This document shows, in pieces, positions 983 to 52,778 of a DNA stretch of 64,000 nt. Made by a program: the position numbers and the translations under genes. The stretch spans positions 7,954 to 71,953 of the forward strand of contig ONHS01000003.1 in the NCBI GenBank assembly GCA_900317715.1, in the 5' to 3' direction. Within the stretch, counting starts at the first letter, position 1. Every line of letters begins with the position of its first letter. The notes below the pieces were generated by a model that saw only the letters and a list, made by a program, of their open reading frames with translations, was not told where the DNA came from and ran no database searches. Origin of the DNA: an uncultured Bacteroidales bacterium. Its GTDB lineage: Bacteria; Bacteroidota; Bacteroidia; Bacteroidales; WCHB1-69.

Positions 983-1108
983 ACTTAGACTTAGACTTAA
1001 ACTTAGACTTAGACTATTCCCTACTCCCTTCTCCCTATTCCCTAAACCCTAAACCTTAAACCTTAAACCATAAACCTAAAACCAAAACCAAAACCAAAAC
1101 CAAAAACC
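983..1108. repeat. Degenerate short tandem array: ACTTAG hexamers, then TATTCCC/TAAACCC/TAAACCT heptamers, then AAACCA hexamers
   Basis: Read directly from the sequence. It fills the whole mraY/murD-like spacer. TAA recurs at 7-nt spacing on the + strand. Confidence 0.9.
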
Positions 1109-1111
1109 ATT

Positions 1112-1669
1112 ATGCCTACGAAAAAAAACAACAGTTTCCGCTTATTCGAACAAGCCCGCGAAACCTCTAACCCGCGCGTGGGAACGCTTTCGGACCAGCT
1201 TATCCGACTGCGTCAGAAGAACATCGCCGAATCTCTGTCCGACTTTGAGGGCAGTGCACATAAATTGGAACATATCAAGAGTTTTTCCGGTGTGGATTTC
1301 GTGGACGACGCGCGTTCCAACACCTCCAACGCTGTCTGGTTTTCGCTGCAATCCATGACCAAACCCACCGTTTGGATCACCAATATCGACTCTCCTGAGT
1401 TACTGACCGACGATATCATGACGCAAGTGCAAGAGAAAGTGAAAGAGGTTGTACTGCAAGGCGTCTATAACATCGACGTGTACCAAAAAATTGCCGAAAA
1501 AGAGATTCCGGTTATGATGACCATGAGCATGGAAGATGCTGTCAATCACGCATTTTACGCATGCCAGAAAGGCGATTTAGTGTTATACGCACCAGGGGTC
1601 CACGGCAATGGACAGGTCACCTTCCGCGAACGCGGCGACCGTTTCAAAGCAGCTGTAGCCCAACTTTAA
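1112..1669 (+). CDS. Stand-alone MurD C-terminal-domain-like protein (185 aa); a truncated or diverged murD
   Basis: ATG at 1112. It sits in the canonical murD slot between mraY and ftsW. It aligns by eye only to the C-terminal domain of UDP-MurNAc-L-Ala:D-Glu ligase (GSAHKLEHI...VDFVDDARSNTSNA versus the usual G.PHR.E....NDSKATN, and TFRERGDRFKAAV at the C-terminus). The N-terminal and central ATP-binding domains are absent. Confidence 0.7.
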   Translation: MPTKKNNSFRLFEQARETSNPRVGTLSDQLIRLRQKNIAESLSDFEGSAHKLEHIKSFSGVDFVDDARSNTSNAVWFSLQSMTKPTVWITNIDSPELLTDDIMTQVQEKVKEVVLQGVYNIDVYQKIAEKEIPVMMTMSMEDAVNHAFYACQKGDLVLYAPGVHGNGQVTFRERGDRFKAAVAQL

Positions 1670-1681
1670 AACCGAACGATT

Positions 1682-2863
1682 ATGAGCGCTGACATCACCG
1701 TGCCGAAAGGCTCTTTTCTTCAGAAAATCAAGCTGAATTCTGACAACGTGATTCCTATCGTCGTCTTTTTCCTAACGGCGATATCCATTGTCATGGTATA
1801 TAGTATGCGCGGCAATGTGGTGCTCAATCACCTCAAGCACATACTGTTCGCATACGTCGGCATGTTCGCGATGTACCGTATCGACTATCGGAAACTGGGC
1901 GTCATTGCCCCGTTTTTGCTCATCACAGCCGCTGTTCTGCTCCTGCTCACCATGCTGTCGCAGGCAGTGCGCGGCATTACCATCTTCGGGCGCGACGTGC
2001 AGACTTTCTACGTCATCGGATTTCTCATCATCTTCTACATTTCCAACTACATGGCACGTCAGTACCATAAATTCGGAGAAATCTCAAGCTCCAATGTCAA
2101 ATACCTCTTCGGATTGCTGCTGGTCTTCTGCCTCGGTATAGCTTCCATGAACATGTCCACCTCTATCATCCTCTTTGGCACAGGATTGGCCATCTTTTTT
2201 GTTGGAGGGATGAGGACAAGGGACATTTTTGGATTAATCGGCATCGTGACCGTGGCGCTGATTTTAGTGGTGATTGTGGTGTCGCAGTTGAGCGATGAAA
2301 AAAAGAGCCGCATCGGTCGTATGTCAACTTTCATCAACCGATGGGAGTACTACATCACCAAAGAAAATGTAAACGGCTACGGTGACCAAATGATCTTGGC
2401 ACGGGCCGCCATCGCACGCTCAGGATTCAACCCCGCCGGACCGGGAAAGGGCGTCATCAAGAACAGACTTCCTGAAAAGGAAACCGACTACGCCTTTGCC
2501 TCCCTGTACGAAGAAACGGGCATCGTAGTGGGCATTATCGTGCTGTTCTCCTACCTCATCATCTTCTATCGAGCGCGAAAAATCTCCATGGAAGCCACCG
2601 GCACTTTCGGACGACTATTGGCCTTCGGCATCGGCTTCTGGTTCACATGCCAAGCGCTGGTGCATATCGGAGTGAACTGCGAACTGCTGCCCACCACGGG
2701 ACAAACCCTGCCGTTCATCAGCAGCGGCGGCGCCTCCCTGTTCGTCTCCGGCTGCGCCATCGGCATGCTCCTCAACGTCGGTAAAGTCTCCTACCTCGAA
2801 AGCCAAAAAGAAGACCCGATGACCATCCTTCGAGGAAACCCAACCCCTACCATAAACCATTAA
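1682..2863 (+). CDS. ftsW: FtsW/RodA (SEDS) family peptidoglycan polymerase / cell-division protein
   Basis: ATG start. About 10 TM segments. SEDS-type C-terminal motif (LPTTGQTLPFISSGGASL). Located in the dcw position after murD. Confidence 0.88.
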   Translation: MSADITVPKGSFLQKIKLNSDNVIPIVVFFLTAISIVMVYSMRGNVVLNHLKHILFAYVGMFAMYRIDYRKLGVIAPFLLITAAVLLLLTMLSQAVRGITIFGRDVQTFYVIGFLIIFYISNYMARQYHKFGEISSSNVKYLFGLLLVFCLGIASMNMSTSIILFGTGLAIFFVGGMRTRDIFGLIGIVTVALILVVIVVSQLSDEKKSRIGRMSTFINRWEYYITKENVNGYGDQMILARAAIARSGFNPAGPGKGVIKNRLPEKETDYAFASLYEETGIVVGIIVLFSYLIIFYRARKISMEATGTFGRLLAFGIGFWFTCQALVHIGVNCELLPTTGQTLPFISSGGASLFVSGCAIGMLLNVGKVSYLESQKEDPMTILRGNPTPTINH

Positions 2864-2865
2864 CG

Positions 2866-3010
2866 TATAACCCTCTAACCCTTTAACCTTCTAAACCATA
2901 AACCATAAACCCTAAACCATAAACCCTAAACTCTAAACCCTAAACTCTAAACCCTAAACTCTAAACTAATAACCCTTTAACCGCCTAACCGTCTAACCCC
3001 CTCTCAACCC
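2866..3010. repeat. Degenerate heptamer array (ATAAACC / CTAAACC / CTAAACT family)
   Basis: About 20 consecutive 7-nt units read directly. TAA falls in all three + frames. It fills the ftsW/ABC-F spacer. Confidence 0.92.
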
Positions 3011-3016
3011 AAAAGA

Positions 3017-4948
3017 ATGATCCAAATCAATAAACTTTCGGTGAACTTCACGGGAGATTTCCTTTTTAAGGACATCTCTTTCGTGGCAGGCGACAAAGAC
3101 CGCATCGGGCTGGTGGGTCACAACGGCGCGGGAAAATCCACGTTACTGAAAATCATCCACCGCGACCTGGAACCTGCATCCGGCACGATGGTCATCACCT
3201 CCGGCCACCGCGTGGGCTATCTGCCGCAGGAACTGGTCGGAAACTCCCCGCTATCCGTGTGGGAAGAAGCCGTCTCCGCCTTCTCGGAAATCAAAGTGAT
3301 GGAACGCAAAATGCAACAGATTTCCACAGAACTTGCTGAACGCACCGATTACGAATCCGAAGCATACGCTAAGCTGACCCAACAGCTTTCCGACCTCAAC
3401 GACCGATATAACCATCTGGGAGGCAATACGATGGATGCCGAAACCGAAAAAGTGCTGCTCGGTATGGGCTTCCTACGCGAGGAATTCCATCAGCCCATGT
3501 CCTCCTTCAGTAACGGCTGGCAGATGCGCGTCTGCCTTGCCAAAATCCTCCTGCAAAAACCCGAAATCATCCTCCTCGACGAGCCCACGAACCATCTCGA
3601 CATCGAATCTATACAATGGCTGGAAGAGTATTTAGCCAATTACGACGGCTGCGTGATTCTGGTCTCCCACGACCGCGCCTTCCTCGACCGCGTCACCAAC
3701 CGTACCGTCGAAATCACCTTAGGCACCATCCAAGACTATAAATGCAGCTACTCCAAATATGTGGAGCAGCGATTGGAACGCATTGAAAGCCAACAATCTG
3801 CATACGAAAACCAACAGAAAGAGATTGCTCAAATCGAACGTTTCATCGAACGTTTCCGCTATAAAGCCACGAAGGCACGGCAAGTGCAAAGCCGCATCAA
3901 AATGCTGGAGAAAATGGACCGTGTGGAAGTGGATGAATACGACAAAAGTTCCATTTCGTTCAAATTTCCGCCCGCGCCGCACTCCGGATTGGTCGTAGTG
4001 GAGAGTAAGAACCTCAGCTTGGGCTACGACACGAAGCCACACGTGCTCACAAATGTGGATTTCCGCTTGGAACGCGGCGAGCGCGTGGCGTTCGTTGGGC
4101 GTAACGGCGAAGGCAAATCCACCATGGTGAAAGCCATCGTGAACGCACTCACGCCCGAAAGCGGAGAGTTAGAACTTGGTTATCAGGTGGTTGTGGGTTA
4201 CTACGCCCAAAACCAAGCACAACTTTTGAATCCGGAAAAAACGGTGTTTGAAACCATCGACGATGTGGCGGTAGGCGATATCCGACCGAAAATCCGCACC
4301 ATCTTGGGCAGCTTCCTTTTCGACACGGAAGACACGGAAAAGAAGGTGAAAGTGCTGTCAGGTGGAGAAAAAGCCCGCCTCGCCTTGGCAAAACTGCTGC
4401 TCTCCCCCTTCAACCTACTCATCCTCGACGAGCCGACCAACCACCTCGACATGCCCTCCAAAGACGTGCTCAAGAACGCCCTTTTGCAATATGAAGGAAG
4501 CCTGATCCTGGTCTCCCACGACCGTGACTTCCTGCAAGGATTGACCTCCAAAGTGTATGAGTTCAAGAATCACCAGATGCACGCCTTCACAGGTGATGTC
4601 TATGACTTCTTGGCACAACGCAAAATGGAGAGTCTCAACGAGTTGCAGAGTCGGAATGTTGCCTCCAACAACGGGGCTGCTGGCGAAAAGACAACCTCCA
4701 ACAAAGAGCAATGGGAACAGCGCAAGCAGCGCGAAGCCGATGACCGCAAACGTAAAAACCGCCTCAAAAAGATTGAAGAGGAGATTGCCTCTTTGCAGCA
4801 AAAGCTCGCCGACACCGAAGCGCAATTGGCTGACCCCGAGCATCATGCCGAAGCCATCGCCTCCGGCGAACTCTACAACACCTACGAATCCCTGAAAAAC
4901 ACCATCGAAGAGAAAGAGATGGAGTGGCTGGAGTTAAGCGAAGCATAA
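3017..4948 (+). CDS. ABC-F family ATPase (two ABC cassettes, no TM domain, K/E-rich coiled-coil tail)
   Basis: Two Walker A motifs (GHNGAGKST, GRNGEGKST), two Walker B motifs (ILLDEPTNHLD, LILDEPTNHLD) and the signature LSGGEKARLAL. The charged C-terminal coil is typical of Uup/YbiT-like ABC-F proteins. Confidence 0.9.
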   Translation: MIQINKLSVNFTGDFLFKDISFVAGDKDRIGLVGHNGAGKSTLLKIIHRDLEPASGTMVITSGHRVGYLPQELVGNSPLSVWEEAVSAFSEIKVMERKMQQISTELAERTDYESEAYAKLTQQLSDLNDRYNHLGGNTMDAETEKVLLGMGFLREEFHQPMSSFSNGWQMRVCLAKILLQKPEIILLDEPTNHLDIESIQWLEEYLANYDGCVILVSHDRAFLDRVTNRTVEITLGTIQDYKCSYSKYVEQRLERIESQQSAYENQQKEIAQIERFIERFRYKATKARQVQSRIKMLEKMDRVEVDEYDKSSISFKFPPAPHSGLVVVESKNLSLGYDTKPHVLTNVDFRLERGERVAFVGRNGEGKSTMVKAIVNALTPESGELELGYQVVVGYYAQNQAQLLNPEKTVFETIDDVAVGDIRPKIRTILGSFLFDTEDTEKKVKVLSGGEKARLALAKLLLSPFNLLILDEPTNHLDMPSKDVLKNALLQYEGSLILVSHDRDFLQGLTSKVYEFKNHQMHAFTGDVYDFLAQRKMESLNELQSRNVASNNGAAGEKTTSNKEQWEQRKQREADDRKRKNRLKKIEEEIASLQQKLADTEAQLADPEHHAEAIASGELYNTYESLKNTIEEKEMEWLELSEA

Positions 4949-7270: not shown

Positions 7271-7275
7271 CAACC

Positions 7276-7340
7276 GTCAAAATCAATATCATAAATCAAA
7301 AGTCATAAGTCAAACGTCAAACGTCATACGTCATACATCT
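7276..7340. repeat. Degenerate heptamer array (GTCAAAC / GTCATAC / GTCATAA family)
   Basis: Read directly. On the complementary strand it reads GTATGAC/GTTTGAC, with TGA at 7-nt spacing. Confidence 0.85.
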
Positions 7341-12360: not shown

Positions 12361-12388
12361 GTAGGGGCGAAAGATTTTTCGCCCCTAC
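12361..12388 (+). terminator. Perfect 12-bp hairpin (GTAGGGGCGAAA-gatt-TTTCGCCCCTAC) 8 nt after tRNA-Ser; probable terminator or processing hairpin, REP family
   Basis: Read directly. Same family as the hairpin at 12147-12179. Only a weak T tract follows. Confidence 0.55.
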
Positions 12389-12413: not shown

Positions 12414-12448
12414 ATTCATCATTCATCATTCTACATTCTTCATTCCGC
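12414..12448. repeat. Degenerate heptamer array (ATTCATC family)
   Basis: Five units: ATTCATC ATTCATC ATTCTAC ATTCTTC ATTCCGC. Confidence 0.85.
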
Positions 12449-12462
12449 ATTGACAAATTCCG

Positions 12463-13209: not shown

Positions 13210-13792
13210 GATCGCCATTGCTGAACCTTCACAGATGCTGCGCAACGGCCTCGCCGACCTCTTGCGCGACGTGCCCGACACGGAGGTGGTCTTCTCCACG
13301 GACAACCTGAACGCATTGTTTTCCAGAATGCCGGCGTTGCATGCGGACATTCTGATTATCAACCCGTTGCTCTTCGAGTACAGCCACCGCGCCACGCTCC
13401 GCGCCGAATTCGACAACCATCCCGAACTGCGCCTCATCGCTCTCGTCACCTCTTACCTCGAATCCCAGCATCTCCGCCAGTTCTCCGGCATCATCGAACT
13501 CAACGACGACCTCCAGCGCGTGAAATCGACCATCAACCAGGTGGTCAACACCCTCCAATCCGACGGCGACGAACCTGACACCGACCCCCTCTCCGACCGC
13601 GAAAAAGAGGTCCTCATCTGCCTCTCCAAAGGTCTGAAAAACAACGAAATAGCAGATACTCTCAACATCTCCGTCCACACCGTCATCACCCACCGCAAAA
13701 ACATCGTCCGCAAAACCGGCATCAAATCCGTCGCGGCGCTGACGGTATATGCGATATTGAACAATTTGATTGAAGAAAAAGACATCATTTAG
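13202..13792 (+). CDS. LuxR/FixJ-family DNA-binding regulator with a degenerate (pseudo-)receiver domain
   Basis: ATG overlaps the upstream stop by 8 nt (ATGATTAA). C-terminal LuxR HTH (LSDREKEVLICLSKGLKNNEIADTLNISVHTVITHRKNI). The N-terminal REC-like fold lacks the acidic pocket (IAIAEPS instead of DD; ILIINP instead of the phospho-Asp motif). Confidence 0.8.
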   Translation: MIKIAIAEPSQMLRNGLADLLRDVPDTEVVFSTDNLNALFSRMPALHADILIINPLLFEYSHRATLRAEFDNHPELRLIALVTSYLESQHLRQFSGIIELNDDLQRVKSTINQVVNTLQSDGDEPDTDPLSDREKEVLICLSKGLKNNEIADTLNISVHTVITHRKNIVRKTGIKSVAALTVYAILNNLIEEKDII

Positions 13793-13985
13793 TTAGCAGT
13801 TAGCAGTTAGTAGTTAGTAGTTAGCAGTTTATGCCGAAAGAGCCACTATATATTAAACTACTTCCTTGAGCAGCCCCGCTAGGGGCAAGAGCTAGGTAGC
13901 CAGGGGTGAGCGCAGCGAAACCCCTGGGACGGATGACGACGATGACACGATGATGCGATGAATGACGATGATGAATAACGAATAC
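13793..13985 (+). repeat. Structured intergenic repeat (MITE/REP-like), copy A: TTAGCAG/TTAGTAG heptamers, a ~105-nt core with two stem-loops, then a GATGA-rich tail
   Basis: Core 13828-13932 is near-identical to 15944-16046 and, in inverse orientation, similar to 39261-39368. Stem-loops GCCCC-gcta-GGGGC and CCAGGGG-n14-CCCCTGG. Confidence 0.85.
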
Positions 13986-13994
13986 CCAGACAAT

Positions 13995-15914
13995 ATGAAT
14001 AAAATAATCACCCTAATTATCACATTATGCCTCGCGTGGTCGATGGCCACCGCGCAGGCCCCCGACCCCTACGCCGGTTACGACCGCGTGACCCTCTATG
14101 ACAGCATGACCGTGCGCATGGAGGAGAACGGTCTCAGCCACTACCTCAACCATCAGCGTTACAGAGTGTTGAGTGATGTTGGCTGCCGCGACAACAACAC
14201 GATCATCGTCGATTACGACCCGCTGTCAGCCTACTGCGAAATCCGCGACGTGGTCATCTACCGCCACGATGGCACGGAGGAGCACCCCGATTTCATGGTG
14301 TGCGACTACCCTGCCCCCGCCCACATGATCTATTGGGGCGCACGGCAGAAGATGGTCGCCCTCGGTCGCCTCGAAATTGGCGACGAGGTGGAATTCCTCA
14401 CCTACAAGAAAGGGTTTACCTACGCGCTGCTGCAGGGCGAGGACCCCGACGCGAAGTACATTCCGCCCATGCGCGGCCACTTCTACGACATCGTCCCCTT
14501 TTGGAGCAGTCAGCCCGTGAAGGAGAAAGTGTATCAAGTCAGTGTGCTGACCAACAAGAATTTGCAGTACAAGATCTACAACGGGAATCTTGCCGTGAAA
14601 ACCACGAAGGATGGCGACCGCACCCTCTTCACCTTCTCAAGCACGGACTATTTCCCGTTGAAGACCCCGCGCTACACCGTGGCCAACAACGACATTGAGC
14701 CAAAGCTCATCGTGACCACCGCGCAAAATTGGGAGGCTAAGTCGATGTGGTTTTACGGCGTAAACGAAGATTTTGGCAGTTTCGAGGCCACGCCGGAAAT
14801 CCAGGCCAAGGTCAACGAGCTGCTGAAGCCGGCCAAGACCGAAAACGACAGTTTGGACATCCTCACGCACTGGGTGGCCGACAACGTGCGCTACTCCGGC
14901 ATCTCGATGGGCGAAGGCGAGGGATTCACGCTCCACAAGTGCGAGATGACCTTCCGCGACCGCTGTGGTGTCTGCAAGGACAAGGCTGGCATGCTCATCG
15001 GCATGTTGCGGGCGGCGGGCTTCAAGGCCTACGCTGCCATGACGATGGCCGGCGAGCGCATCGAGGACATCCCCGCCGACCAATTCAACCATTGCATCAC
15101 GGTGGTACAGCGTCGCAACGGCAACTACCAACTTTTGGATCCCACGTGGGTTCCGGGCGTGCGCGGCGAACTCTGGTCCAGCGCGGAACAGCAACAGAAC
15201 TACCTGATGGGACTGCCTAAAGGCTCGAAGTTGGGACTTACCCCCGTCTCCGACCCGAAGAACCACTACGTGCGCATGACCGCCCAGACCGAAGTCACCA
15301 AAAAGGGCTCGCTCAAGGGCACCGTCACCATCACCGCCGACCGGCAGAGCGACCGCACCGTGCGCGGTGTCTTCTACGGCTTCCGCACCGAATGGCGACG
15401 CAATGTGGAAGAGATGCTCTATGCGCAGTACCCCAACGCGAAACTCAAAAGCGTGAAATACACCAGCGAGGACGACTACCTCAAACAACCGGTAAGCATC
15501 ACCTACACGTTCGAAATCCCTGACTACGCGATTGTTACGGACAACGAGGTGATCGCCACGCCCTTCCTCGCCAACGGCTTCTACACCTTCGCCATGCGTC
15601 ACCTCTTCTACGACATCAGCTTGGAGAAGCGCGACTACCCCTTCACTGACCGTTGCTCCCGCTACGTCGCCATCAACGAAACGATGAAGGTGCCATCGGG
15701 TTACACCCGCGTGAGCACGCCCCAATCGCAGCAGTTCGTCACCCCAACCATCTCGTTCAAAGGCGGTTACCAAATCGGCTACAACATGGTCACCTTCACC
15801 GAAAACATCACCCTCGGCAAGCGCGTCTATGAGGCTTCCGAATGGCCCTCTTTCCGCAAAGCCGTGCAATGCCAACGAGGGTATATGGGGAATCCGGTGG
15901 TGTTCATCAAATAG
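13995..15914 (+). CDS. Exported DUF3857-like / transglutaminase-like cysteine-peptidase-fold protein
   Basis: The track start at 13962 lies in the GATGA repeat. ATG 13995 gives a signal peptide MNKIITLIITLCLAWSMATA|QAP. Transglutaminase core Cys (GVCKDKAGMLIGMLRAAG), then His (FNHCITV) and Asp (LLDPTW). GC-rich gene. Confidence 0.78.
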   Translation: MNKIITLIITLCLAWSMATAQAPDPYAGYDRVTLYDSMTVRMEENGLSHYLNHQRYRVLSDVGCRDNNTIIVDYDPLSAYCEIRDVVIYRHDGTEEHPDFMVCDYPAPAHMIYWGARQKMVALGRLEIGDEVEFLTYKKGFTYALLQGEDPDAKYIPPMRGHFYDIVPFWSSQPVKEKVYQVSVLTNKNLQYKIYNGNLAVKTTKDGDRTLFTFSSTDYFPLKTPRYTVANNDIEPKLIVTTAQNWEAKSMWFYGVNEDFGSFEATPEIQAKVNELLKPAKTENDSLDILTHWVADNVRYSGISMGEGEGFTLHKCEMTFRDRCGVCKDKAGMLIGMLRAAGFKAYAAMTMAGERIEDIPADQFNHCITVVQRRNGNYQLLDPTWVPGVRGELWSSAEQQQNYLMGLPKGSKLGLTPVSDPKNHYVRMTAQTEVTKKGSLKGTVTITADRQSDRTVRGVFYGFRTEWRRNVEEMLYAQYPNAKLKSVKYTSEDDYLKQPVSITYTFEIPDYAIVTDNEVIATPFLANGFYTFAMRHLFYDISLEKRDYPFTDRCSRYVAINETMKVPSGYTRVSTPQSQQFVTPTISFKGGYQIGYNMVTFTENITLGKRVYEASEWPSFRKAVQCQRGYMGNPVVFIK

Positions 15915-16090
15915 TTAGCAATTAGCAGTTAGTAGTTAGCAGTTCATGCTGAAAGCTCCCACATATATTCAACTACTTCCTTGAGCAGCCCCGCTAGGGG
16001 CAAGAGCTCGGTAGCCAGGGGTGAGCGCAGCGAAACCCCTGGAACGAATGGCGATGATGAAGCGATGAATGATGCGATGAATGACGATAA
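15915..16090 (+). repeat. Structured intergenic repeat, copy B
   Basis: Begins immediately after stop TAG 15912-15914. Same architecture and orientation as copy A. Confidence 0.85.
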
Positions 16091-16165
16091 AATAATTATG
16101 CATTATGAATTACAAATTATGAATTTAATTGTGCATTATGCATTATGAATTATGAATTTATAAAG
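16091..16165. repeat. Degenerate heptamer array (ATTATGA / ATTATGC family)
   Basis: Read directly. TGA at 7-nt spacing on the + strand. Overlaps the spurious TTG/ATG-extended start of the next gene. Confidence 0.85.
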
Positions 16166-16168
16166 AAC

Positions 16169-17855: not shown

Positions 17856-17920
17856 TCTTCCTCTGGTCTTCCTCTGGTGTAACTCTGGTGTAACTCTGGT
17901 GTTCTCTGGTGTAACTCTGA
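17856..17920. repeat. Tandem 11-mer array (TCTTCCTCTGG x2, TGTAACTCTGG x4 degenerate)
   Basis: Read directly. Starts 10 nt after the stop. Confidence 0.9.
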
Positions 17921-17933
17921 TCAAACCATTGTA

Positions 17934-17955
17934 GAGACGTTGCGCGCAACGTCTC
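17934..17955. repeat. Perfect 22-nt palindrome GAGACGTTGCGCGCAACGTCTC (TGTAGAGACG...CGTCTC hairpin family)
   Basis: Read directly. Related hairpins occur at 18024-18047 and 20501-20530. Confidence 0.85.
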
Positions 17956-18016
17956 CACAACGGCACGAAAAGAATGTTTGGATATATTGTTTTTTATTAC
18001 CGATAGATTACATGAT

Positions 18017-18047
18017 AAAAAAAAGAGACGCGATGAATCGCGTCTCT
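18017..18047 (-). terminator. Rho-independent terminator of the DUF975 gene
   Basis: Minus strand: AGAGACGCG-attcat-CGCGTCTCT followed by T8. Lies 19 nt after the stop. Confidence 0.8.
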
Positions 18048-18065
18048 ATTACGGGGACTACCCCA

Positions 18066-18782: not shown

Positions 18783-18798
18783 AATATTTGATATTTTT

Positions 18799-18811
18799 AT
18801 TGATAATCAAT
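18799..18811. promoter_or_regulatory. 13-bp perfect palindrome ATTGAT-A-ATCAAT in the DUF975 leader
   Basis: Lies 16 nt from ATG 18782. A 12/13 copy lies at 19015-19027, 16 nt from ATG 19044. Confidence 0.4.
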
Positions 18812-18818
18812 TTTGACG

Positions 18819-18826
18819 CAAAAATA
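18819..18826 (-). promoter_or_regulatory. -7 promoter box TATTTTTG (minus strand) for the DUF975 gene
   Basis: Exact TAnnTTTG 37 nt upstream of ATG 18782. Confidence 0.5.
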
Positions 18827-18968
18827 CAAAATCTTCCAAACACATTTAAGGATGCAAAAATAGCAAAAGGTTGCAGAAAAACGAAAAAAAAATTTTCACT
18901 TTTCGTTATCAACACTTTTTGTTCAAAAAAAAATCCACTTTTTTTTGCCCGCTTTTTTAGAAAAAAAA

Positions 18969-18976
18969 TATTTTTG
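18969..18976 (+). promoter_or_regulatory. -7 promoter box TATTTTTG for the PurF-like gene
   Basis: Exact TAnnTTTG preceded by an A8 run. Lies 68 nt upstream of ATG 19044. Confidence 0.5.
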
Positions 18977-19014
18977 CAACCCGTTGGAAGCAATGATTTT
19001 CTAACACTCATCTT

Positions 19015-19027
19015 ATTAATAATCAAT
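19015..19027. promoter_or_regulatory. Near-palindrome ATTAAT-A-ATCAAT in the PurF-like leader
   Basis: 12/13 identical to 18799-18811, with identical spacing to the start codon. Confidence 0.4.
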
Positions 19028-19043
19028 TAAAAACATCAAAATT

Positions 19044-20456: not shown

Positions 20457-20500
20457 CAGCTACTTCCACATCGAATATCCACAAATATTATAATTTTCCT

Positions 20501-20530
20501 TGTAGAGACGGTGAGCGCACCGTCTCTACA
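20501..20530 (+). terminator. 13-bp perfect hairpin TGTAGAGACGGTG-agcg-CACCGTCTCTACA, a possible terminator without a U tract
   Basis: Lies 45 nt after the stop at 20456. Member of the TGTAGAGACG hairpin family. Confidence 0.45.
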
Positions 20531-22439: not shown

Positions 22440-22526
22440 CCGAATTTACGATTCGATATTTTTTCTATACTCTTTTTTTTCAAAAAATCAAGAGGCGAAA
22501 AATATTTTTTTTAACTTTTTTTTTGT

Positions 22527-22534
22527 TAATTTTG
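22527..22534 (+). promoter_or_regulatory. -7 promoter box TAATTTTG for dnaA
   Basis: Exact TAnnTTTG in an AT-rich, T-run-rich spacer. Lies 87 nt upstream of ATG 22621. Confidence 0.45.
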
Positions 22535-22620
22535 CGAGTTGAAATTTTGAGAAGATACCTTTCTCTAATAAGCTCTATTAAAGGATTATAGATTTTATAA
22601 ACAGAAGTTGAAACTGCAAA

Positions 22621-28966: not shown

Positions 28967-29002
28967 TGTTTTGATTTTATTCTATGAACATTCCCCAAAA
29001 GC

Positions 29003-29044
29003 CAACAGCCAAAAGCCAACAGCTAACAGCTAACAGCCAAAGAC
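29003..29044. repeat. Degenerate heptamer array (CAACAGC / TAACAGC; complement TTAGCTG family)
   Basis: Six units read directly. The last ~7 codons and the TAG stop of tex lie inside the array. Confidence 0.85.
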
Positions 29045-31176: not shown

Positions 31177-31325
31177 GACTTATGACGTTGGACGTATGAT
31201 TTTGATTTATGATTTATGACGTTGAAAATATAACTATTTACTCGTAATCTTATCTCAAGTCACACGTCACACGTCACACGTCACACGTCACACGTCATAA
31301 AACACACGTCACACGTCAACGTCTC
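31177..31325. repeat. Two opposed heptamer arrays: GACTTAT/GACGTAT/ATTTATG (31177-31233) and GTCACAC/GTCATAA (31259-31325)
   Basis: Read directly. The GACGTAT family is the reverse complement (by rotation) of the GTCATAC family, giving an imperfect long inverted repeat. Confidence 0.88.
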
Positions 31326-34777: not shown

Positions 34778-34854
34778 GACGACGCTTCCAAGCGTCGCAA
34801 AAAAATATCATTCGCTTCCAAGCGTCGCAGGAAAAATTTGCTTCCAAGCATCGC
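34778..34854. repeat. Three tandem ~30-nt units, each carrying a GCGACGCTTGGAAGCG(TC) hairpin (third unit degenerate)
   Basis: Read directly: GACGACGCTTCCAAGCGTCGC / TTCGCTTCCAAGCGTCGC / TTGCTTCCAAGCATCGC at about 30-nt spacing. Confidence 0.85.
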
Positions 34855-34862
34855 AAAACCGC

Positions 34863-39240: not shown

Positions 39241-39400
39241 TATCATCATATCCTCGTCATTCGACCCAGGGTTGCGGCCAGAGGCCTTACCCTGGGCTAC
39301 CGAGCTCTTGCCCCTACGGGGCTACTCAAGGAAGTAGTTTAATATATGTGGGAGCTTTTCGGCATAAACTGCTAACTTCTAACTACTAACTGCCAACTAT
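39241..39400 (-). repeat. Structured intergenic repeat, copy C (inverse orientation, co-oriented with creD)
   Basis: The reverse complement aligns with copies A and B. Stem-loops GCCCC-gta-GGGGC and CCCAGGG-n18-CCCTGGG, the latter shifted and compensated relative to A/B. Confidence 0.8.
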
Positions 39401-39409
39401 CAAAAAGTA

Positions 39410-39424
39410 CTTTGCGCTACAAAG
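39410..39424. promoter_or_regulatory. Operator-like motif CTTTGCGCTACAAAG, within the conserved 22-mer AAAAGTACTTTGCGCnnCAAAG
   Basis: Second copy of the motif at 40517-40531. Lies just after the regulator stop and upstream of copy C and creD. Confidence 0.45.
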
Positions 39425-39442
39425 TTTTATACCAAAAAAATT

Positions 39443-39812: not shown

Positions 39813-39862
39813 CACAAGTTTCAGATTTCAAGTTTCAGGTTTCAAGTCACAAGTCACAAGTC
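39813..39862. repeat. Degenerate heptamer array (CACAAGT / TTCAAGT / TTCAGGT)
   Basis: Read directly. The minus strand has TGA at 7-nt spacing immediately after the stop at 39863. Confidence 0.88.
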
Positions 39863-40504: not shown

Positions 40505-40516
40505 ATCTTAAAAGTA

Positions 40517-40531
40517 CTTTGCGCCGCAAAG
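40517..40531. promoter_or_regulatory. Perfect 15-bp palindrome CTTTGCG-C-CGCAAAG overlapping the -7 box; a candidate operator
   Basis: Read directly. Lies between the -7 box (40527-40534) and ATG 40504. Confidence 0.5.
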
Positions 40532-40534
40532 ATA
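40527..40534 (-). promoter_or_regulatory. -7 promoter box TATCTTTG (minus strand)
   Basis: Exact TAnnTTTG preceded by an A8/T8 run. Lies 23 nt upstream of ATG 40504. Confidence 0.55.
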
Positions 40535-40575
40535 TACTTTTTTTTGATACATACAAGTCGTTGATGTTTTTTTTT

Positions 40576-40675
40576 GCTGTTGGCCATTAGCTATTAGCTG
40601 TTAGCTGTTAGCTGTTAGCTGTTGGCTGTTGGCTGTAAGCTTCAACTACTAACTACTAACTACTAACTGCTAACT
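40576..40675. repeat. Opposed heptamer arrays: GCTGTTA/GCTATTA x9, then CTACTAA x4-5
   Basis: Read directly. CTACTAA is the reverse complement of TTAGTAG, so the two halves form an imperfect inverted repeat. Confidence 0.9.
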
Positions 40676-40707
40676 AAAAAAAAGCGACCGATTCGAAAAC
40701 CGGTCGC
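40676..40707 (-). terminator. Rho-independent terminator ending the rpoBC-DUF3467 transcription unit
   Basis: Minus strand: GCGACCG-gttttcgaat-CGGTCGC followed by T8. Lies 33 nt after the stop at 40740. Confidence 0.8.
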
Positions 40708-40739
40708 CACAAAATTTATAAAAAAGTTGAACGTAGTCG

Positions 40740-41104: not shown

Positions 41105-41176
41105 GACGTATGACGTATGACTTATGACGTTGGGTTATTCAATACATCATACGTCCTACGTCACACGTCTTACGAC
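41105..41176. repeat. Opposed heptamer arrays: GACGTAT/GACTTAT, then CATACGT/CCTACGT/CACACGT
   Basis: Read directly. The two arms are reverse complements with periodic mismatches. The array abuts the rpoC stop. Confidence 0.88.
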
Positions 41177-49360: not shown

Positions 49361-49408
49361 GCAATAAGAACAAGGCTTCCACACGTGGTGGAAGCGTTGT
49401 TCTATTGC
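49361..49408 (-). terminator. Long hairpin in the rplL-rpoB spacer; a probable attenuator or partial terminator
   Basis: Core GCTTCCAC-acgtg-GTGGAAGC, extended by AACAAG/GTTGTT and GCAATAAGAAC/GTTCTATTGC. A T-rich stretch follows on the minus strand. Confidence 0.6.
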
Positions 49409-49426
49409 TTAAGGTATGAGTTGAAA

Positions 49427-49804: not shown

Positions 49805-49856
49805 AATTGTTATTTTTTTTATTGTTTTTACTAAATTGAATTATTTGTTTTTTGTT

Positions 49857-50375: not shown

Positions 50376-50389
50376 ACTAACTAATCTTT

Positions 50390-51085: not shown

Positions 51086-51107
51086 TTGTTTTGATTTTAC
51101 TTGTTAA

Positions 51108-51557
51108 TTAATTTTGCTCAAAAGGATTCTGGCCACCTTTCACATTGACACCCATGCTGCGTGCAGTACCTGCAACCATAGACATAGCAGACTCGATCGT
51201 AAAGCAGTTCAAGTCTTTCATCTTGATTTCAGCGATGGCGCGCACTTGGTCCCAAGTGATCGTCCCCACTTTCGTGCGGTTCGGCTCTCCTGATCCCTTC
51301 TGAAGTTTGGCAGCCTCCATAACCTGGACAGCAACCGGCGGCGTTTTGGTAACAAAGTCAAAGGATTTATCCTTATAGACCGTGATGATCACAGGAATGA
51401 CTTTGCCAGCTAAATCCTGCGTACGAGAATTGAACTGTTTGCAAAATTCCATGATATTCACGCCCTTGGAACCTAAAGCAGGACCTACCGGCGGTGACGG
51501 ATTGGCGGCACCTCCCTTAATCTGTAACTTAATTAAGCCAGCAACTTCTTTTGCCAT
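51108..51557 (-). CDS. rplK: 50S ribosomal protein L11
   Basis: 149 aa. Motif PPVGPALG. Confidence 0.97.
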
Positions 51558-51596
51558 TGTTTTTAATTTAAAATGTTTGTAACTGATGCACAGACG

Positions 51597-52151
51597 TTAT
51601 ATTTTTTCAACTTGCATAAAACCGAGCTCAAGCGGGGTCTTACGTCCGAAGATTTTCACCGTAATCTTCAGCTTCTTTTTCTCAGTGTCAATCTCTTCGA
51701 TGATACCGTTAAAAGTGTTGAAAGGTCCGTCGATAACTTTCACCTCCTCACCTACTAGATAAGGCTGTAACAAGAACTCATCCTGTGTGGAGAGCTCGTC
51801 TACTTTACCCAACAGACGAGAAACTTCATCTTTGCGCAACGGAATAGGAGGATCGCTTTTACGTTTGCATCCGACAAATCCCAACACGCCAGGAATTTCA
51901 AGCAGCTTGGCACAAACCTCCTGAGTCATGATTGCCTCGACAAAAATGTAACTCGGGAAATAATTGCGCTCCTTCACCACTTTCTTTCCGTTTTTCGTGC
52001 TGTGAAAAACTTTCTCCGTAGGGATCAGAACCTCAAAGACAGAATCCTTGAGACTGGAAAGTGCAACTTCACTGTCAATGTTCTGTTTAACCTTCTTCTC
52101 CGTTCCCGTCACGGATTTAATCACATACCATTTACGCTCTAATTCAGCCAT
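51597..52151 (-). CDS. nusG: Transcription termination/antitermination factor NusG
   Basis: The track start at 52157 is TTG. ATG 52151 gives MAELERKWYV. Contains an NGN domain plus a KOW motif (GEEVKVIDGPF). Confidence 0.93.
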   Translation of the reverse strand: MAELERKWYVIKSVTGTEKKVKQNIDSEVALSSLKDSVFEVLIPTEKVFHSTKNGKKVVKERNYFPSYIFVEAIMTQEVCAKLLEIPGVLGFVGCKRKSDPPIPLRKDEVSRLLGKVDELSTQDEFLLQPYLVGEEVKVIDGPFNTFNGIIEEIDTEKKKLKITVKIFGRKTPLELGFMQVEKI

Positions 52152-52191
52152 GTTCAAGTTACTTTAGGATATAATGCCTGTTATAAAGAAA

Positions 52192-52380
52192 CTAAACAGT
52201 TGGGAACATCAAGTTCATTCCCAAATTGAAGAGGCTATCCATCAAAAACACGATAAACGCGATTATAAGGGAAGCAATGGATACCACTACAACACTATTT
52301 CCAAGTTCTTGCATGGTCGGCCAGGTCGTTTTATGAACCAGCTCATCATACGTCTCTTTAAAATAATTGACTATCTTCAT
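52192..52380 (-). CDS. secE: Preprotein translocase subunit SecE
   Basis: 62 aa with a single C-terminal TM. Motif ELVHKTTWPT. Lies immediately upstream of nusG. Confidence 0.88.
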   Translation of the reverse strand: MKIVNYFKETYDELVHKTTWPTMQELGNSVVVVSIASLIIAFIVFLMDSLFNLGMNLMFPTV

Positions 52381-52562
52381 TTCTTTATATTTTTTCTATT
52401 TTTCAAATTTTCGCTCAAATTTCCGCGTTTTCAACACCTCTACCCTACTCCAAATTGAATAGATTTGCGTTTACAACGCCACTCAACACAATCTATATCA
52501 AGCAGTTAAAAATCAACCCACACATTCTTTCCATTCCAAATAACGATTTTTAAACAAGCTGG

Positions 52563-52570
52563 CAAATATA
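52563..52570 (-). promoter_or_regulatory. -7 promoter box TATATTTG (minus strand), candidate secE-nusG promoter
   Basis: Exact TAnnTTTG preceded by an A8 run. Implies a leader of roughly 175 nt. Confidence 0.4.
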
Positions 52571-52690
52571 GCATTTTTTTTAATCAAACCCCCACTGTTG
52601 AAAAAAAAATTTCACTATGGCACGCTTTTTGTAGTAAAAATCGTTAACCATCTGAGAATCAAAACCTAATCTCTTAATCCTCCCACAGAT

Positions 52691-52778
52691 CTTCCATCTT
52701 ACTTCTTCCATCATCCATCTTCCAACATTCATCATTCATCATTCTTCATTATGCATTATGAATTATGAATTATGAATT
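52691..52778. repeat. Opposed heptamer arrays: CTTCCAT/CATTCAT, then CATTATG/AATTATG
   Basis: Read directly. ATGAATT is close to the reverse complement of CATTCAT, giving an imperfect inverted repeat. Confidence 0.88.

Follow-up and report, generated by a model that had tools for sequence, protein, structure and literature searches.

In the 64,000-nt stretch of bacterial DNA analysed here (the window), many intergenic spacers contain tracts of imperfect tandem units, mostly of 7 nt, which raises the question of what these tracts are, how they arise and whether they serve the neighboring genes. The source species is an uncultured, anaerobic rumen Bacteroidales represented by metagenome assemblies only. 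Lag match rates in the 4,847 intergenic bases of the window were compared with those of 200 dinucleotide-preserving shuffles, and arrays were called with Tandem Repeats Finder (TRF). The match rate at lag 7 was 0.372 in intergenic DNA and 0.282 ± 0.006 in the shuffles (z = 14.0), with a further excess at lag 14 (z = 9.9). Coding DNA of the window showed period 3 only, with a lag-7 match rate of 0.240. The check for period-7 enrichment suggested in a preliminary description of this DNA thus came out positive, and TRF returned an array at every tract listed there; the Bacteroidota origin supposed there was also right.

The arrays do not fill most spacers, as had been claimed. They occur in 13 of the 31 spacers of ≥20 nt within window positions 1–51,085 (spacer 52,152–52,830, counted separately, is also array-bearing) and total 937 nt by TRF clusters or ~1,190 nt by the merged list, that is, 19–25% of intergenic bases. 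The recurrence of the same unit families at unlinked loci was borne out: 30 pairs of units from different spacers are at most one mismatch apart in any rotation or strand, compared with 6–7 for composition-matched random heptamers, whose maximum in 2,000 trials was 18. There are no spacers between units, in agreement with the statement that the arrays are not CRISPR. The TRF arrays, and the three cores of a composite element defined by alignment of its copies and a consensus fold, are as follows.

983..1110, + strand: chain of 6- and 7-mers (ACTTAG ×5.5, CTACTCC ×4.4, CCCTAAA ×7.3, AAACCA ×6.5) occupying the entire mraY–orf185 spacer and stopping 3 nt short of the ATG; 9 length alleles among 10 strains; predicted RNA MFE −1.6 kcal/mol over 135 nt.
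2868..3002, + strand: TAACCCTC ×3.4, CTAAACC/ATAAACC ×10.9 and TAACCGCC ×3.1 occupying the ftsW–ABC-F spacer, the final ftsW codons and stop being array-like; 111–167 nt across strains, mostly in 7-nt steps and in the central units only.
7271..7336, + strand: GTCAAAA/GTCATAA/GTCAAAC/GTCATAC array immediately 3' of the aspartokinase stop and upstream of the promoter-like motif TATTTTTG; −14 nt allele in two strains; missing from L005 and L007, which have a GTAG hairpin instead.
12414..12451, + strand: ATTCATC ×4.6 array flanked on one side by tRNA-Ser and its GTAG hairpin and on the other by the promoter-like TATCTTTG of a hemerythrin-domain gene; −7 nt allele in L047.
13790..13829, + strand: TTAGCAG/TTAGTAG ×5.6 array, 5' flank of composite element copy 1, starting inside the TAG stop codon of a LuxR-type gene; alleles 0, −7 and −14 nt.
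13828..13935, + strand: composite element core, copy 1, with hairpin A (GAGCAGCCCCGCTAGGGGCAAGAGCT), GGTAG and hairpin B (CCAGGGG...CCCCTGG).
13932..13981, + strand: GATGA-type array with units of 8–13 nt, 3' flank of copy 1.
15913..15944, + strand: TTAGCAG-type ×4.6 array, 5' flank of copy 2, starting at the TAG with which the first DUF3857 gene ends; −14 nt allele in L050.
15943..16050, + strand: composite element core, copy 2.
16051..16160, + strand: 12-mer GCGATGAATGAA ×2.9, then AATTATG ×9.6, reaching the start of the second DUF3857 gene; alleles −12 and +46 nt.
17861..17919, + strand: 11-mer array CTCTGGTGTTA ×5.5, then a GTAG-tagged palindrome; +11 nt allele, and a +12 nt allele made of the +11 plus one A in a homopolymer run.
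28995..29041, − strand: CTGTTGG/CTTTTGG array (sense strand) ×6.6 overlapping the last codons and stop of the Tex-like gene; alleles −14, −7 and +7 nt.
31177..31323, − strand: inverted array pair (TRF arrays 31195–31219 and 31259–31323) between an FKBP gene and Tex, reading GACGTGT units, a 35-nt centre and GTCATAA/ATACGTC units on the sense strand; predicted hairpin −54 kcal/mol, z = −5.2; alleles −14 and −13 nt.
39258..39368, − strand: composite element core, copy 3, with changed but still paired stem bases in hairpin B (CCCAGGG...CCCTGGG).
39367..39399, − strand: TTGGCAG/TTAGTAG/TTAGAAG/TTAGCAG array (sense strand), 5' flank of copy 3; adjacent units never identical; same length in 4 strains.
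39815..39862, − strand: TGACTTG ×2.9, then AAACTTG/AAACCTG ×4.7 (sense strand), immediately 3' of the orf213 stop; alleles +7 and +14 nt, common to independent studies.
40576..40676, − strand: AGTTAGC/AGTTAGT ×4.7, then TAACAGC/CAACAGC ×9.4 (sense strand), between an intrinsic terminator and a TATCTTTG promoter-like motif; alleles −16, −22 and −49 nt; both arrays swapped for AATTATG/AATGAAG arrays in L060; partial hairpin potential, predicted fold z = −3.4.
41105..41174, − strand: inverted pair GACGTAT / ATACGTC immediately 3' of the rpoC stop; predicted hairpin −36 kcal/mol, z = −6.1; same length in 8 strains.
52689..52779, − strand: ATCATCC, CATCATT and ATTATGA arrays (+ strand reading) immediately downstream of the terminator hairpin of an OmpA-like gene; fold z = −2.3.

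Several tracts are composite. Those at 31177–31325 and 41105–41176 are the inverted array pairs, the tract 16046–16165 is the 12-mer array followed by a 7-mer array, and the tracts at 13793, 15915 and 39369 are flanks of one repeated ~200-nt element with a conserved non-repetitive hairpin core. The arrays lie almost entirely outside genes. Their description as non-coding has to be qualified, since several genes (ftsW, Tex, the LuxR-type gene and the first DUF3857 gene) end within an array, from which their final codons and stop codon come.

To compare strains, we used ~30 independent assemblies of the source species from several studies, which are 95.5–100% identical to the window outside the arrays. 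Array lengths, read from these short-read metagenome assemblies, are polymorphic between strains in unit-size steps in 11 of the 13 array spacers, while each of the 14 spacers that lack arrays and have strain data differs by only 0–4 nt. Between conspecific strains, arrays change almost only in their pure centre, where whole units are gained or lost singly or in blocks; the degenerate edge units and non-repeat flanks are fixed, and the two length-invariant arrays have runs of identical neighboring units never longer than two. Orthologous spacers, whose comparison had been proposed earlier, therefore show arrays that expand, contract and turn over, and the earlier remark that these are not classical microsatellites is misleading, since gain and loss of whole units is typical VNTR or minisatellite behavior. 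A single array can be absent (L005, L007), replaced by another unit family (L060) or reach into the 3' part of a neighboring gene, as in L009, where it has replaced 24 codons of the ftsW C-terminus. Identical alleles recur in assemblies of different studies, so that the arrays are real, VNTR-like loci and not the assembly or consensus artefacts once feared.

The proposal of a genome-wide process holds at the level of the lineage, since arrays were also found in the source species outside the window and in related species. In a clade sample of 1.5 Mb we found ~1 array per 5 kb, a genome-wide density that, like orientation relative to replication, is extrapolated from clade contigs rather than a complete genome; of the 561 arrays that TRF called in 1.53 Mb of clade sequence, 303 have period 7 or 14. 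The lag-7 excess is 0.10 in the source species and in a relative whose FtsW is 93% identical and whose DNA shows ~91% nucleotide identity to the window, 0.04 in relatives at 76–79% FtsW identity and ~0 in further lineages in which the gene order is the same. The trait is thus lineage-specific and missing from sister lineages that share the gene order. The same operon spacers bear arrays across species, and in the dcw spacers the unit sequence changes. Among sister species the ftsW–ABC-F spacer ranges from 2–6 nt up to 314 nt. In the mraY–orf185 spacer the number of AAACC copies rises by degrees, from two imperfect ones in relatives that lack the array up to 11.

The reading we prefer, and hold to be rather probable, is that the tracts are hypermutable heptanucleotide minisatellites of the bacterial long simple sequence repeat class, generated by slippage or unequal recombination and limited by selection at gene ends. 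Judging from the allele patterns, arrays would arise in place when slipped-strand mispairing or unequal recombination acts on short A/T-rich motifs that gene boundaries already contain. One such seed may be the G-poor ...AAACCATT-ATG leader of Shine-Dalgarno-less genes, and another a TAG-containing motif at stop codons. Growth would end where selection protects the last codon that the upstream gene needs, or the promoter and initiation region of the downstream gene. Selection probably also filters the surviving units, leaving stops in three frames, few AUGs and unstructured, A-rich sense strands, and the filtered arrays would be harmless or mildly useful spacers; we do not think that each array has a function of its own. 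This reading is supported by the restriction of the period-7 excess to intergenic DNA, the unit-step polymorphism beside stable array-free spacers, the turnover and the graded AAACC series at mraY–orf185. Purely neutral slippage would not predict the sense-strand bias, stop and start positions and stop triplets described below, or persistence at the same operon spacers; the dominance of 7 nt over 6 or 8 is not accounted for by any of the present results.

These biases bear on the alternative that the arrays are selected RNA-level punctuation of Shine-Dalgarno-less polycistronic mRNAs, with copy number tuning expression, which we regard as unlikely though worth serious attention. Stop-proximal arrays would terminate translation in three frames, start-proximal arrays free of G and AUG would form an unstructured A-rich leader, and the reader might be a single-strand-binding protein with a ~7-nt footprint, e.g., S1 or a cold-shock protein. 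Consistently, 83 of 126 co-directional spacers have arrays with more A than T on the sense strand (83:43; P = 5e-4), 17 of 17 TTAGCAG arrays begin at the stop codon of the gene upstream, and AAACC-type arrays lie a median of 7 nt upstream of the start codon. A sense-strand stop triplet occurs in 17 of 22 units versus 8 expected, an excess weaker than it appears as the units are not independent. The dcw spacers keep arrays across species despite the change of unit. Bacteroidetes initiation needs low mRNA structure, A at −3 and no nearby AUG (PMC6847099), and CspB binds heptamer repeats with one protein per heptamer (reviewed in PMC4679880). Strong hairpins are predicted for the inverted pairs only, and direct arrays are predicted to be unstructured; however, shuffled arrays are equally unstructured, so this is a composition effect. 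Against punctuation, single arrays are dispensable, being absent or family-swapped in conspecific strains or represented by spacers of 2–6 nt in sister species, and copy number differs in nearly every strain, essential operons included. Some arrays follow an intrinsic terminator and precede the next promoter (40505–40739), and so may not be transcribed with either gene. The C>G sense-strand bias expected for Rho loading sites was not found (65:65). Any function of the arrays, including the roles in insulation, termination or RNA 3'-end structure suggested earlier, is putative.

Could all arrays instead be parts or scars of a mobile, non-autonomous REPIN- or MITE-like element, the core-less ones being remnants after core loss? 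The composite, in which the hairpin core has a TTAGCAG array on its 5' side and a GATGA-type array on its 3' side, is present in three copies in the window. In rumen metagenomes the core, which has no match in Rfam, was found in at least 106 distinct contexts, and it shares the orientation of both flanking genes 62:6. YGGTAG follows the hairpin in 95 of 102 copies and is itself often followed by a palindrome, as in GTAG-tagged REPs (PMC3733652). Two copies in L024 are near-identical over ~165 nt, arrays included, having been duplicated as a block. Of 112 core copies with full flanks, 76 have a 6–8 nt array within 120 nt upstream, which leaves about one third without. Moreover, 10 of the 13 array-bearing window spacers lack the core, the AAACC-type arrays show a graded in-place origin from a native leader, neither terminal inverted repeats nor target-site duplications were observed, and there is no transposase within the window. 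An origin of all arrays from such an element therefore seems improbable. In the preferred minisatellite reading, a subset (TTAGCAG 5', GATGA-type 3') would in addition have been dispersed genome-wide as flanks of a transcription-oriented mosaic element; that element would comprise the conserved hairpin, GGTAG and a second, variable palindrome, and by its arrangement may be likened to REP/BIME.

Even more doubtful are contingency loci, in which repeat number would switch neighboring genes by phase variation: strains show hypervariable repeat numbers, and several arrays are situated upstream of promoter-like motifs, but the arrays fall outside promoter cores and reading frames, many immediately follow stop codons, and the genes beside them are not surface or restriction genes but housekeeping ones (dcw cluster, rpoC, Tex). 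Although the CCCTAAA/CTAAACC unit equals the plant-type telomere repeat and many contigs of the source species break at arrays, assembly error or contamination is effectively refuted by the occurrence of arrays between bacterial genes, with shared alleles and near-identical flanks, in ~30 independent assemblies from several studies.

Returning to the minisatellite reading, the statement that no function or mechanism had been described for such arrays in Bacteroidota missed published work, which covers intergenic heptamer arrays in five Bacteroidetes, cyanobacteria, Beggiatoaceae and Xanthomonas and a polymerase-slippage hypothesis for the heptamer excess (PMC4679880, PMC4692102). As relayed in these papers, Mrazek et al. 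2007 described long simple sequence repeats with units of 5–11 nt, most commonly 7 nt, and the examples given there include arrays of GGGAATC in Xanthomonas and of GGGGA(C/T)T in Nostoc. In many bacteria no other class of long simple sequence repeat is as over-represented as heptamers, and their length varies between close relatives (PMC4692102, PMC4679880). The arrays here likewise are imperfect tandem heptamers, mostly intergenic, at many loci per genome in scattered lineages, with length and sequence variation between close relatives, occasional stem-loop-capable inverted pairs and slippage as the proposed origin. They differ in their units, which are A/T-rich (35–39% GC) and unable to form G-quadruplexes, in having several unit families instead of a dominating one, in their stop and start codon preferences and in flanking, in part, a conserved hairpin element.

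TAACTGA direct repeats occur in Beggiatoaceae, cyanobacteria and five Bacteroidetes (MacGregor 2015, PMC4679880), with "larger assemblages of heptamer repeats" in Gramella, Aequorivita and Elizabethkingia (PMC4679880). They too are intergenic, near start or stop codons, orientation-biased and missing from the same spacer in close relatives, and the commonest unit here, read on the opposite strand as TAACTGC, is one base away. Neither the window nor any of the 181 loci contains an exact TAACTGA tandem. In sense orientation, TTAGCAG lies beside stop codons here, whereas in "Maribeggiatoa" it is mostly TAACTGA just upstream of starts (PMC4679880). The present host also differs from those of TAACTGA repeats, being an anaerobic rumen Bacteroidales.

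Mazel and colleagues reportedly described in 1990 the cyanobacterial STRR (short tandemly repeated repetitive) heptanucleotides, several families of which are said to be dispersed in the intergenic DNA of one lineage. The spread of several heptamer families through one lineage's intergenic DNA is common to both; unit sequences and phylum differ, and strain-level dynamics and hairpin association are described here and not, in the literature covered, for STRR. Calothrix heptanucleotides are mentioned in PMC4692102.

The composite element may be compared with REPs, BIMEs and GTAG-tagged palindromes (PMC3733652, PMC2817692). It has a hairpin core, GGTAG and then a variable palindrome, its modules combine as a mosaic, and its copies lie 3' of genes, mostly between co-directional or convergent genes, a placement also described for REPs. 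Unlike in BIMEs, the mosaic partners are heptamer arrays rather than alternating REPs, the element's two hairpins are dissimilar and have the same orientation, and no RAYT gene associated with it was identified. A 2013 survey placed GTAG repeats in Proteobacteria, Cyanobacteria, Chloroflexi and the PVC group, not in Bacteroidetes. Within Bacteroidales, a minisatellite inside a MITE is reported for Porphyromonas gingivalis (PMC4596501), likewise a tandem array carried in a dispersed non-coding element; that is one element family, defined as a MITE, whereas most arrays here stand alone, without inverted-repeat ends. Together, the tracts of this rumen lineage represent a known kind of bacterial repeat, here at high density beside a conserved hairpin element.

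The tandem arrays are real features of the intergenic DNA of the window. Tandem Repeats Finder (TRF) returned an array at every tract that the preliminary description had listed, the 11-mer array (17861–17919) included, and in the raw sequence the units lie head-to-tail and drift by single substitutions. The gene map, which combines open reading frames, NCBIfam matches and a single tRNA, leaves an intergenic remainder of 4,847 bases (7.6% of the window). The period-7 autocorrelation proposed as a check gave an intergenic lag-7 match rate of 0.372, as compared with 0.282 ± 0.006 in 200 dinucleotide-preserving shuffles of the same bases (z = 14.0); lag 14 was also raised over the shuffles (z = 9.9), and the coding DNA of the window displayed period 3 only, with no lag-7 signal. 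That arrays fill most intergenic spacers is too strong a statement: they occur in 13 of the 31 spacers of at least 20 nt within window positions 1–51,085, with a further array-bearing spacer (52,152–52,830) beyond these, and they cover 937 to ~1,190 nt, or 19–25% of the window's intergenic bases. The claimed recurrence of a few unit families holds, since 30 inter-spacer unit pairs differ by at most one mismatch against 6–7 expected by chance (2,000 random sets, maximum 18). CRISPR, with 23–50-nt repeats and unique spacers of similar size, was rightly set aside, as the units are contiguous, spacer-free 6–12-mers. The initial observation is thus confirmed, and its interpretation is partly supported.

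The window encodes part of the dcw cluster (mraY, a 185-aa ORF termed orf185, and ftsW), dnaA and a nusG-rplKAJL-rpoBC block. Exact-protein look-ups retrieved ~30 same-species contigs from independent metagenome assemblies, which are 95.5–100% identical to the window outside the arrays, and ERZ28614109 scaffold_52 is identical to it. All ~30 contigs carry the arrays, and identical alleles recur in assemblies of different studies, which excludes both the assembly or consensus error that the preliminary description had considered and contamination with plant telomeres (CCCTAAA). Nor do the CCCTAAA arrays represent telomeric repeats at the ends of linear replicons, because they are internal, located between mraY, orf185, ftsW and an ABC-F gene in contigs of up to 199 kb. 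A scan using one genome per species found relatives only among uncultured Bacteroidales MAGs from the rumen, omasum and abomasum of cattle, sheep, goat, yak, buffalo and deer. The FtsW of the best relative is 93% identical to that of the window, that of a group of twelve 76–79%, and that of others ~59% or less.

With regard to gene order, the dcw cluster ends after ftsW, where an ABC-F ATPase is found instead of murG, murC and ftsQAZ (window 2864–4948), as is also the case in relatives at 76–93% FtsW identity. orf185 (window 1112–1669) matches only the C-terminal third of MurD (TIGR01087, 285–440), below the family cut-off, and has no Pfam match; full-length murD is absent at the locus. Since orf185 is kept at 42–86% identity in more than 25 related Bacteroidales loci, always between mraY and ftsW, we regard it as a real small protein and not a pseudogene. 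Pseudogene or rearrangement scars, an origin of the arrays brought to mind by this MurD-C-terminal-like ORF, do not account for them, as the ORF is conserved in all relatives, arrays or not. The window contains no transposase or reverse transcriptase gene.

To compare strains, all array-bearing and array-free spacers with strain data were extracted per strain by anchoring in the flanking genes. This comparison of orthologous spacers, suggested in the preliminary description, revealed length polymorphism in 11 of the 13 array-bearing spacers. The 7-mer arrays differ by 7, 14, 21, 28, 35, 42 or 49 nt, the 11-mer array by 11 nt and the 12-mer array by 12 or 46 nt, while offsets of ±1 nt correspond to homopolymer runs; array-free spacers vary by 0–4 nt in 14 of 14. 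The two dcw arrays have different alleles in 9 of 10 strains, with flanks that are 99.5–99.7% identical. In the strain alignments, change is restricted to the pure central units. Specifically, the 8-mer edges of the ftsW/ABC-F spacer (TAACCCTC..., TAACCGCC...) are the same in all strains and its CTAAACC/ATAAACC centre is variable, and the two length-invariant arrays never contain more than two identical neighbouring units in a run. Among individual strains, L006 carries a segmental duplication of ~46 nt (net +11 nt), and in L060 AATTATG/AATGAAG arrays replace the AGTTAGC and CAACAGC arrays, with the same terminator and promoter-like motif on either side (such TAnnTTTG motifs were read by eye against the Bacteroidetes consensus, as promoters of this phylum differ from those of the sigma-70 type). 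Strains L005 and L007 share a divergent, array-free allele after the aspartokinase gene, with a GTAG-tagged hairpin instead, and in L009 the array is fused into ftsW, whose last 24 codons are replaced. Arrays can disappear, give way to other arrays or extend into the end of a gene, and their behaviour between strains is that of standard VNTRs or minisatellites. The tracts are real, lineage-specific, hypervariable tandem arrays, which change by whole units and draw on a limited shared unit set.

The period-7 signal also extends beyond the window, a point on which the preliminary description had made its significance depend. In non-ORF DNA, the lag-7 excess (the period-7 self-match rate above expectation) tracks relatedness.

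Lag-7 excess in non-ORF DNA, by group
Window: 0.10
Same species, outside the window: 0.105
Relative at 93% FtsW identity: 0.11
Twelve species at 76–79% FtsW identity: 0.037, lag 8 raised too
Three lineages at ~59% FtsW identity: 0.028
Five other ~59% lineages with the same dcw gene order: ~0
Three more distant lineages: ~0

TRF detected no period-7 array in the related loci L023, L026 and L029–L031 (~105 kb in total). Across 1.53 Mb of clade DNA, a sample partly selected for the hairpin element described below, it found 204 arrays of period 7 and 99 of period 14, together with 10, 36, 28 and 54 arrays of periods 6, 8, 11 and 12, respectively; 223 of the 250 arrays of period 6–8 lie outside long ORFs. 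Arrays have been gained and lost between species in orthologous dcw spacers: the ftsW/ABC-F spacer ranges from 2–6 nt (L012, L014) to 314 nt (L037), and the mraY/orf185 spacer from 5–36 nt in lineages without arrays to as much as 249 nt (L024). Units common to several species include TAAACCA, CAATAAC, TAACCTCC, CGATGAAA, GCTGTTG, TAACTGC, GTTTCAA and AATCACT. On a separate matter, L029 and L031 are GTDB representative records titled Oscillospiraceae, yet they contain a Bacteroidales-type dcw cluster with 58–59% FtsW identity and the 185-aa ORF, and these bins are probably mislabelled or contaminated.

Three of the tracts, at 13793, 15915 and 39369, are the flanks of one composite element, which consists of a TTAGCAG array, a conserved core of ~108 nt, and GATGA-type arrays.

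Copies of the core in the window
13828–13935: conserved two-hairpin core, copy 1
15943–16050: conserved two-hairpin core, copy 2
39258–39368, minus strand: conserved two-hairpin core, copy 3

The core is predicted to fold into hairpin A (GAGCAGCCCCGnTAGGGGCAAGAGCT) and hairpin B (CCAGGGG...CCCCTGG, or CCCAGGG...CCCTGGG in copy 3). With curated thresholds, Rfam identified only the tRNA-Ser in the window, and a permissive search of composite copy 1 gave only chance-level snoRNA/sRNA matches; arrays and core match no described RNA family in Rfam. The hairpin A pattern was found in at least 120 stretches of metagenome contigs, which, taken together across metagenomes and species, amount to at least 106 distinct contexts; the window itself contains three copies. 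Among the matches listed, a 6–8-nt array lies within 120 nt upstream in 76 of 112 full-flank copies (TTAGCAG-type in 33), and a downstream array, mostly CGATGAT-type, in 39 of 112; YGGTAG follows hairpin A in 95 of 102 distinct copies, and a CCAGGGG- or CCCAGGG-type palindrome follows YGGTAG in 44 of 102. Some of these listed copies contain an optional third hairpin module, and the element has the same orientation as both flanking genes in 62 cases and is opposed to both in 6. The dcw cluster of L024 contains two copies 5.4 kb apart that are near-identical over ~165 nt including the flanking arrays, and thus arrays can be copied as a block.

Hairpin A is a short imperfect palindrome with an unpaired GTAG tag at one end, as in REP sequences. 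The element resembles REPs and BIMEs in its GTAG tag followed by a palindrome, its location downstream of genes and its modular build (PMC3733652, PMC2817692). It is not a BIME of regularly spaced REPs in alternating orientation, because hairpins A and B are unlike and share the same orientation, and the other modules are tandem heptamers. No RAYT (Y1 transposase) gene is present within the window, and a 2013 survey assigned to this phylum CGTC-tagged repeats only (PMC3733652). Judging from these sequence features, the two-hairpin core may constitute a GTAG-tagged REP-like family in Bacteroidales. Other GTAG palindromes are located at 12361–12388 and 20500–20529; with those at 17931–17960 and 18026–18050, they make up a set of further GC-rich palindromes, several of which lie within GTAG...CTAC (examples are GTAGGGGCGAAAGATTTTTCGCCCCTAC, just 3' of the tRNA-Ser, and GTAGAGACGGTGAGCGCACCGTCTCTAC). 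The hairpin that stands in place of the heptamer array in L005 and L007 is similar to these.

The arrays are not placed evenly within spacers, although the loci used for these rules were partly hairpin-selected, which introduces a sampling bias. In co-directional spacers, the array overlaps the upstream stop codon or starts no more than 3 nt from it in 69 of 137 cases, and it is closer to the stop in 90 and to the start in 46. In the hairpin-selected sample, all 17 TTAGCAG-type arrays are stop-adjacent (median −2 nt), with the TAG stop within the first unit, and for the AAACC-type arrays the median distance to the start codon is 7 nt, 21 of 31 being closer to the start. The leader ...AAACCATT/ATG occurs in 1–2 imperfect copies even in array-free relatives and forms a graded series to 11 copies, which suggests that the start-proximal AAACC-type arrays may have been amplified in place from the native leader.

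On the sense strand, A exceeds T in 83 spacers and the reverse holds in 43 (P = 5e-4). A sense-strand stop triplet is present in 17 of 22 window units against 8 expected, a comparison with a small effective sample because the units fall into few families. With regard to a possible replication-strand bias, the plus strand of the arrays has C>G in the half of the window with plus-strand genes as well as in the half with minus-strand genes, and the sign differs between individual arrays. Rho loading sites could suit the C-rich, G-poor dcw arrays, but they fail as a general explanation since G>C and C>G are equally frequent on the sense strand (65:65 over 130 spacers). Direct arrays have predicted folding energies of 0 to −1.6 kcal/mol over 135–145 nt, and their shuffles are equally structureless; the lack of structure is thus due to composition alone, which speaks against selection for structure-free RNA. 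The inverted array pairs after the FKBP gene and after rpoC are predicted to form long hairpins of −54 kcal/mol (z = −5.2) and −36 kcal/mol (z = −6.1), respectively. Array-derived ATGs mislead start calls at 13962–14042 and 16145–16168 of the window: the first DUF3857 gene (ORF at 13962) is 27 codons shorter in other assemblies (623 vs 650 aa), and in the second DUF3857 ORF the first ATG falls within the AATTATG array.

Heptamer arrays have reportedly been noted in cyanobacteria since 1990, and to our knowledge neither the cause of the 7-nt unit nor a function has been established to date. As PMC4679880 and PMC4692102 relate, heptamer tandem arrays have been noted across bacteria since 2007, when Mrazek et al. 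described heptamers as the most over-represented long simple sequence repeat (long SSR) in many bacterial genomes and proposed that ~7 nt is the DNA segment held by the polymerase, favouring slippage. The GGGAATC arrays of Xanthomonas and GGGGA(C/T)T arrays of Nostoc are intergenic, differ in length between close relatives and at times form inverted pairs (PMC4692102). Arrays of TAACTGA are described for Beggiatoaceae, cyanobacteria and five Bacteroidetes, one of which, Paludibacter, belongs to the Bacteroidales; Gramella, Aequorivita and Elizabethkingia have "larger assemblages of heptamer repeats" that the same spacers of close relatives lack (PMC4679880). The window arrays have the defining features of the heptanucleotide long-SSR class: their 5–11-nt units lie head-to-tail, with 7 nt the commonest (TRF, window and 1.53 Mb), they are over-represented and mainly intergenic (lag-7 z = 14; 223 of 250 outside long ORFs), and their copy number is polymorphic between close relatives (11 of 13 array spacers). 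They are distinct from the cyanobacterial STRRs, which belong to heterocystous cyanobacteria and not to rumen Bacteroidales, and none of the TRF consensus units is known to be an STRR heptamer. They likewise fall outside the TAACTGA family (MacGregor 2015), as the window and 181 loci contain no exact TAACTGA tandem and the nearest unit, TAACTGC, has one mismatch per unit. Phase-variable contingency loci carry the repeat inside the reading frame or between the promoter elements of a surface or restriction gene, whereas the arrays here follow stop codons or precede complete promoters, at housekeeping genes. What is new here is the host clade, the density, the strain-level evidence for unit-wise turnover, the stop and start positions of the families, and the link to a GTAG-hairpin mosaic.

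Several other features were observed in the window and its strains. The dnaA gene (22621–24078) has AT-rich spacers nearby (18783–19043, 22440–22620) with long A and T runs; the cumulative GC skew does not turn at dnaA and falls to ~54 kb, so the replication origin may not adjoin dnaA. The segment 36691–37835, whose 274-aa and 58-aa ORFs match no family, is shared by the window, L054 and L055 and missing from L052, L053, L056 and L059, a pattern that identifies it as a strain-variable insertion or deletion. In L042 (1–9000) and L050 (1–5400), a mobile-element-like block (primase, amidase, small ORFs) upstream of a hemerythrin-domain gene replaces the lpxD/lpxC of the window. Two copies of the motif AAAAGTACTTTGCGC(C/T)(G/A)CAAAG, with a CTTTG...CAAAG palindrome (39403–39425 and 40509–40530), bracket orf213, an ORF upstream of the minus-strand array 39815–39862, and an HTH_34 regulator gene; the motif may be an operator or mark the ends of an inserted two-gene cassette. 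A 30-nt tandem repeat of 2.7 copies (CGCTTCCAAGCGTCGCAAAAAAATATATT; 34783–34858) spans the start of a DHH-family gene and the preceding spacer. Finally, the giant minus-strand ORF at 54432–63950 (3,172 aa, cut by the window end) contains repeated Ig-like (CHU_C-associated) and PKD domains, and has a GC skew opposite in sign to the remainder of the window.

The allele patterns, that is, whole-unit indels in pure runs and fixed degenerate edges, fit slippage as the mechanism of change. We infer from them that arrays probably arise and change length through slipped-strand mispairing and unequal recombination, with short motifs at gene boundaries as putative seeds. Selection would confine the arrays, upstream through the last needed codons and downstream through the promoter or initiation region, and a subset may have been dispersed together with the hairpin mosaic. 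That the arrays are biased in orientation, position and stop content shows that their persistence is subject to a filter, either selection or a mutation process specific to one strand. According to their predicted properties, the surviving units are harmless in mRNA, having stops in every frame and few AUGs and being A-rich and unstructured. These traits suit initiation in Bacteroidetes, where ribosomes ignore the Shine-Dalgarno sequence and rely on weak mRNA structure, an A at −3 and a lack of other AUGs close by (PMC6847099).

The main rival explanation, which we consider less probable, casts the arrays as selected "punctuation" with a protein of 7-nt footprint as its reader, and it fits the same orientation, position and stop-content biases. 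In its complete form, the intergenic DNA of this rumen clade would be an ordered system comprised of a stop-codon (TTAGCAG)n pad that halts translation in every frame, GTAG hairpins, GATGA-type arrays, and G-free (AAACC)n leaders that end at the A-3 of the next start, while the 7-nt period would come from an S1- or Csp-like single-strand binder with a 7-nt footprint or from a hairpin-linked enzyme that reads or writes the units. We consider it improbable that all these parts hold jointly; if they do, the arrays would be an evolved, tunable stand-in for Shine-Dalgarno operon punctuation, not slippage debris. Our preferred reading is slippage followed by filtering, and we do not think that the arrays carry separate functions one by one, given that conspecific strains and sister species can dispense with single arrays.

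In practical terms, short-read assemblies break at the arrays, the prediction of gene ends and start codons is shifted by them, and one unit resembles the plant telomere repeat; they would also be excellent VNTR markers for typing strains of this uncultured rumen lineage. As a case of heptamer arrays, the clade is dense and well sampled, with ~1 array per 4–5 kb, even within the dcw and rpoBC operons, and conspecific strains in hundreds of public rumen metagenomes, and this makes mutation dynamics, array birth and decay, and orientation rules measurable. Rumen metatranscriptomes could show whether the arrays play a part at the RNA level, and both the 7-nt unit and any function could be addressed with public rumen data.
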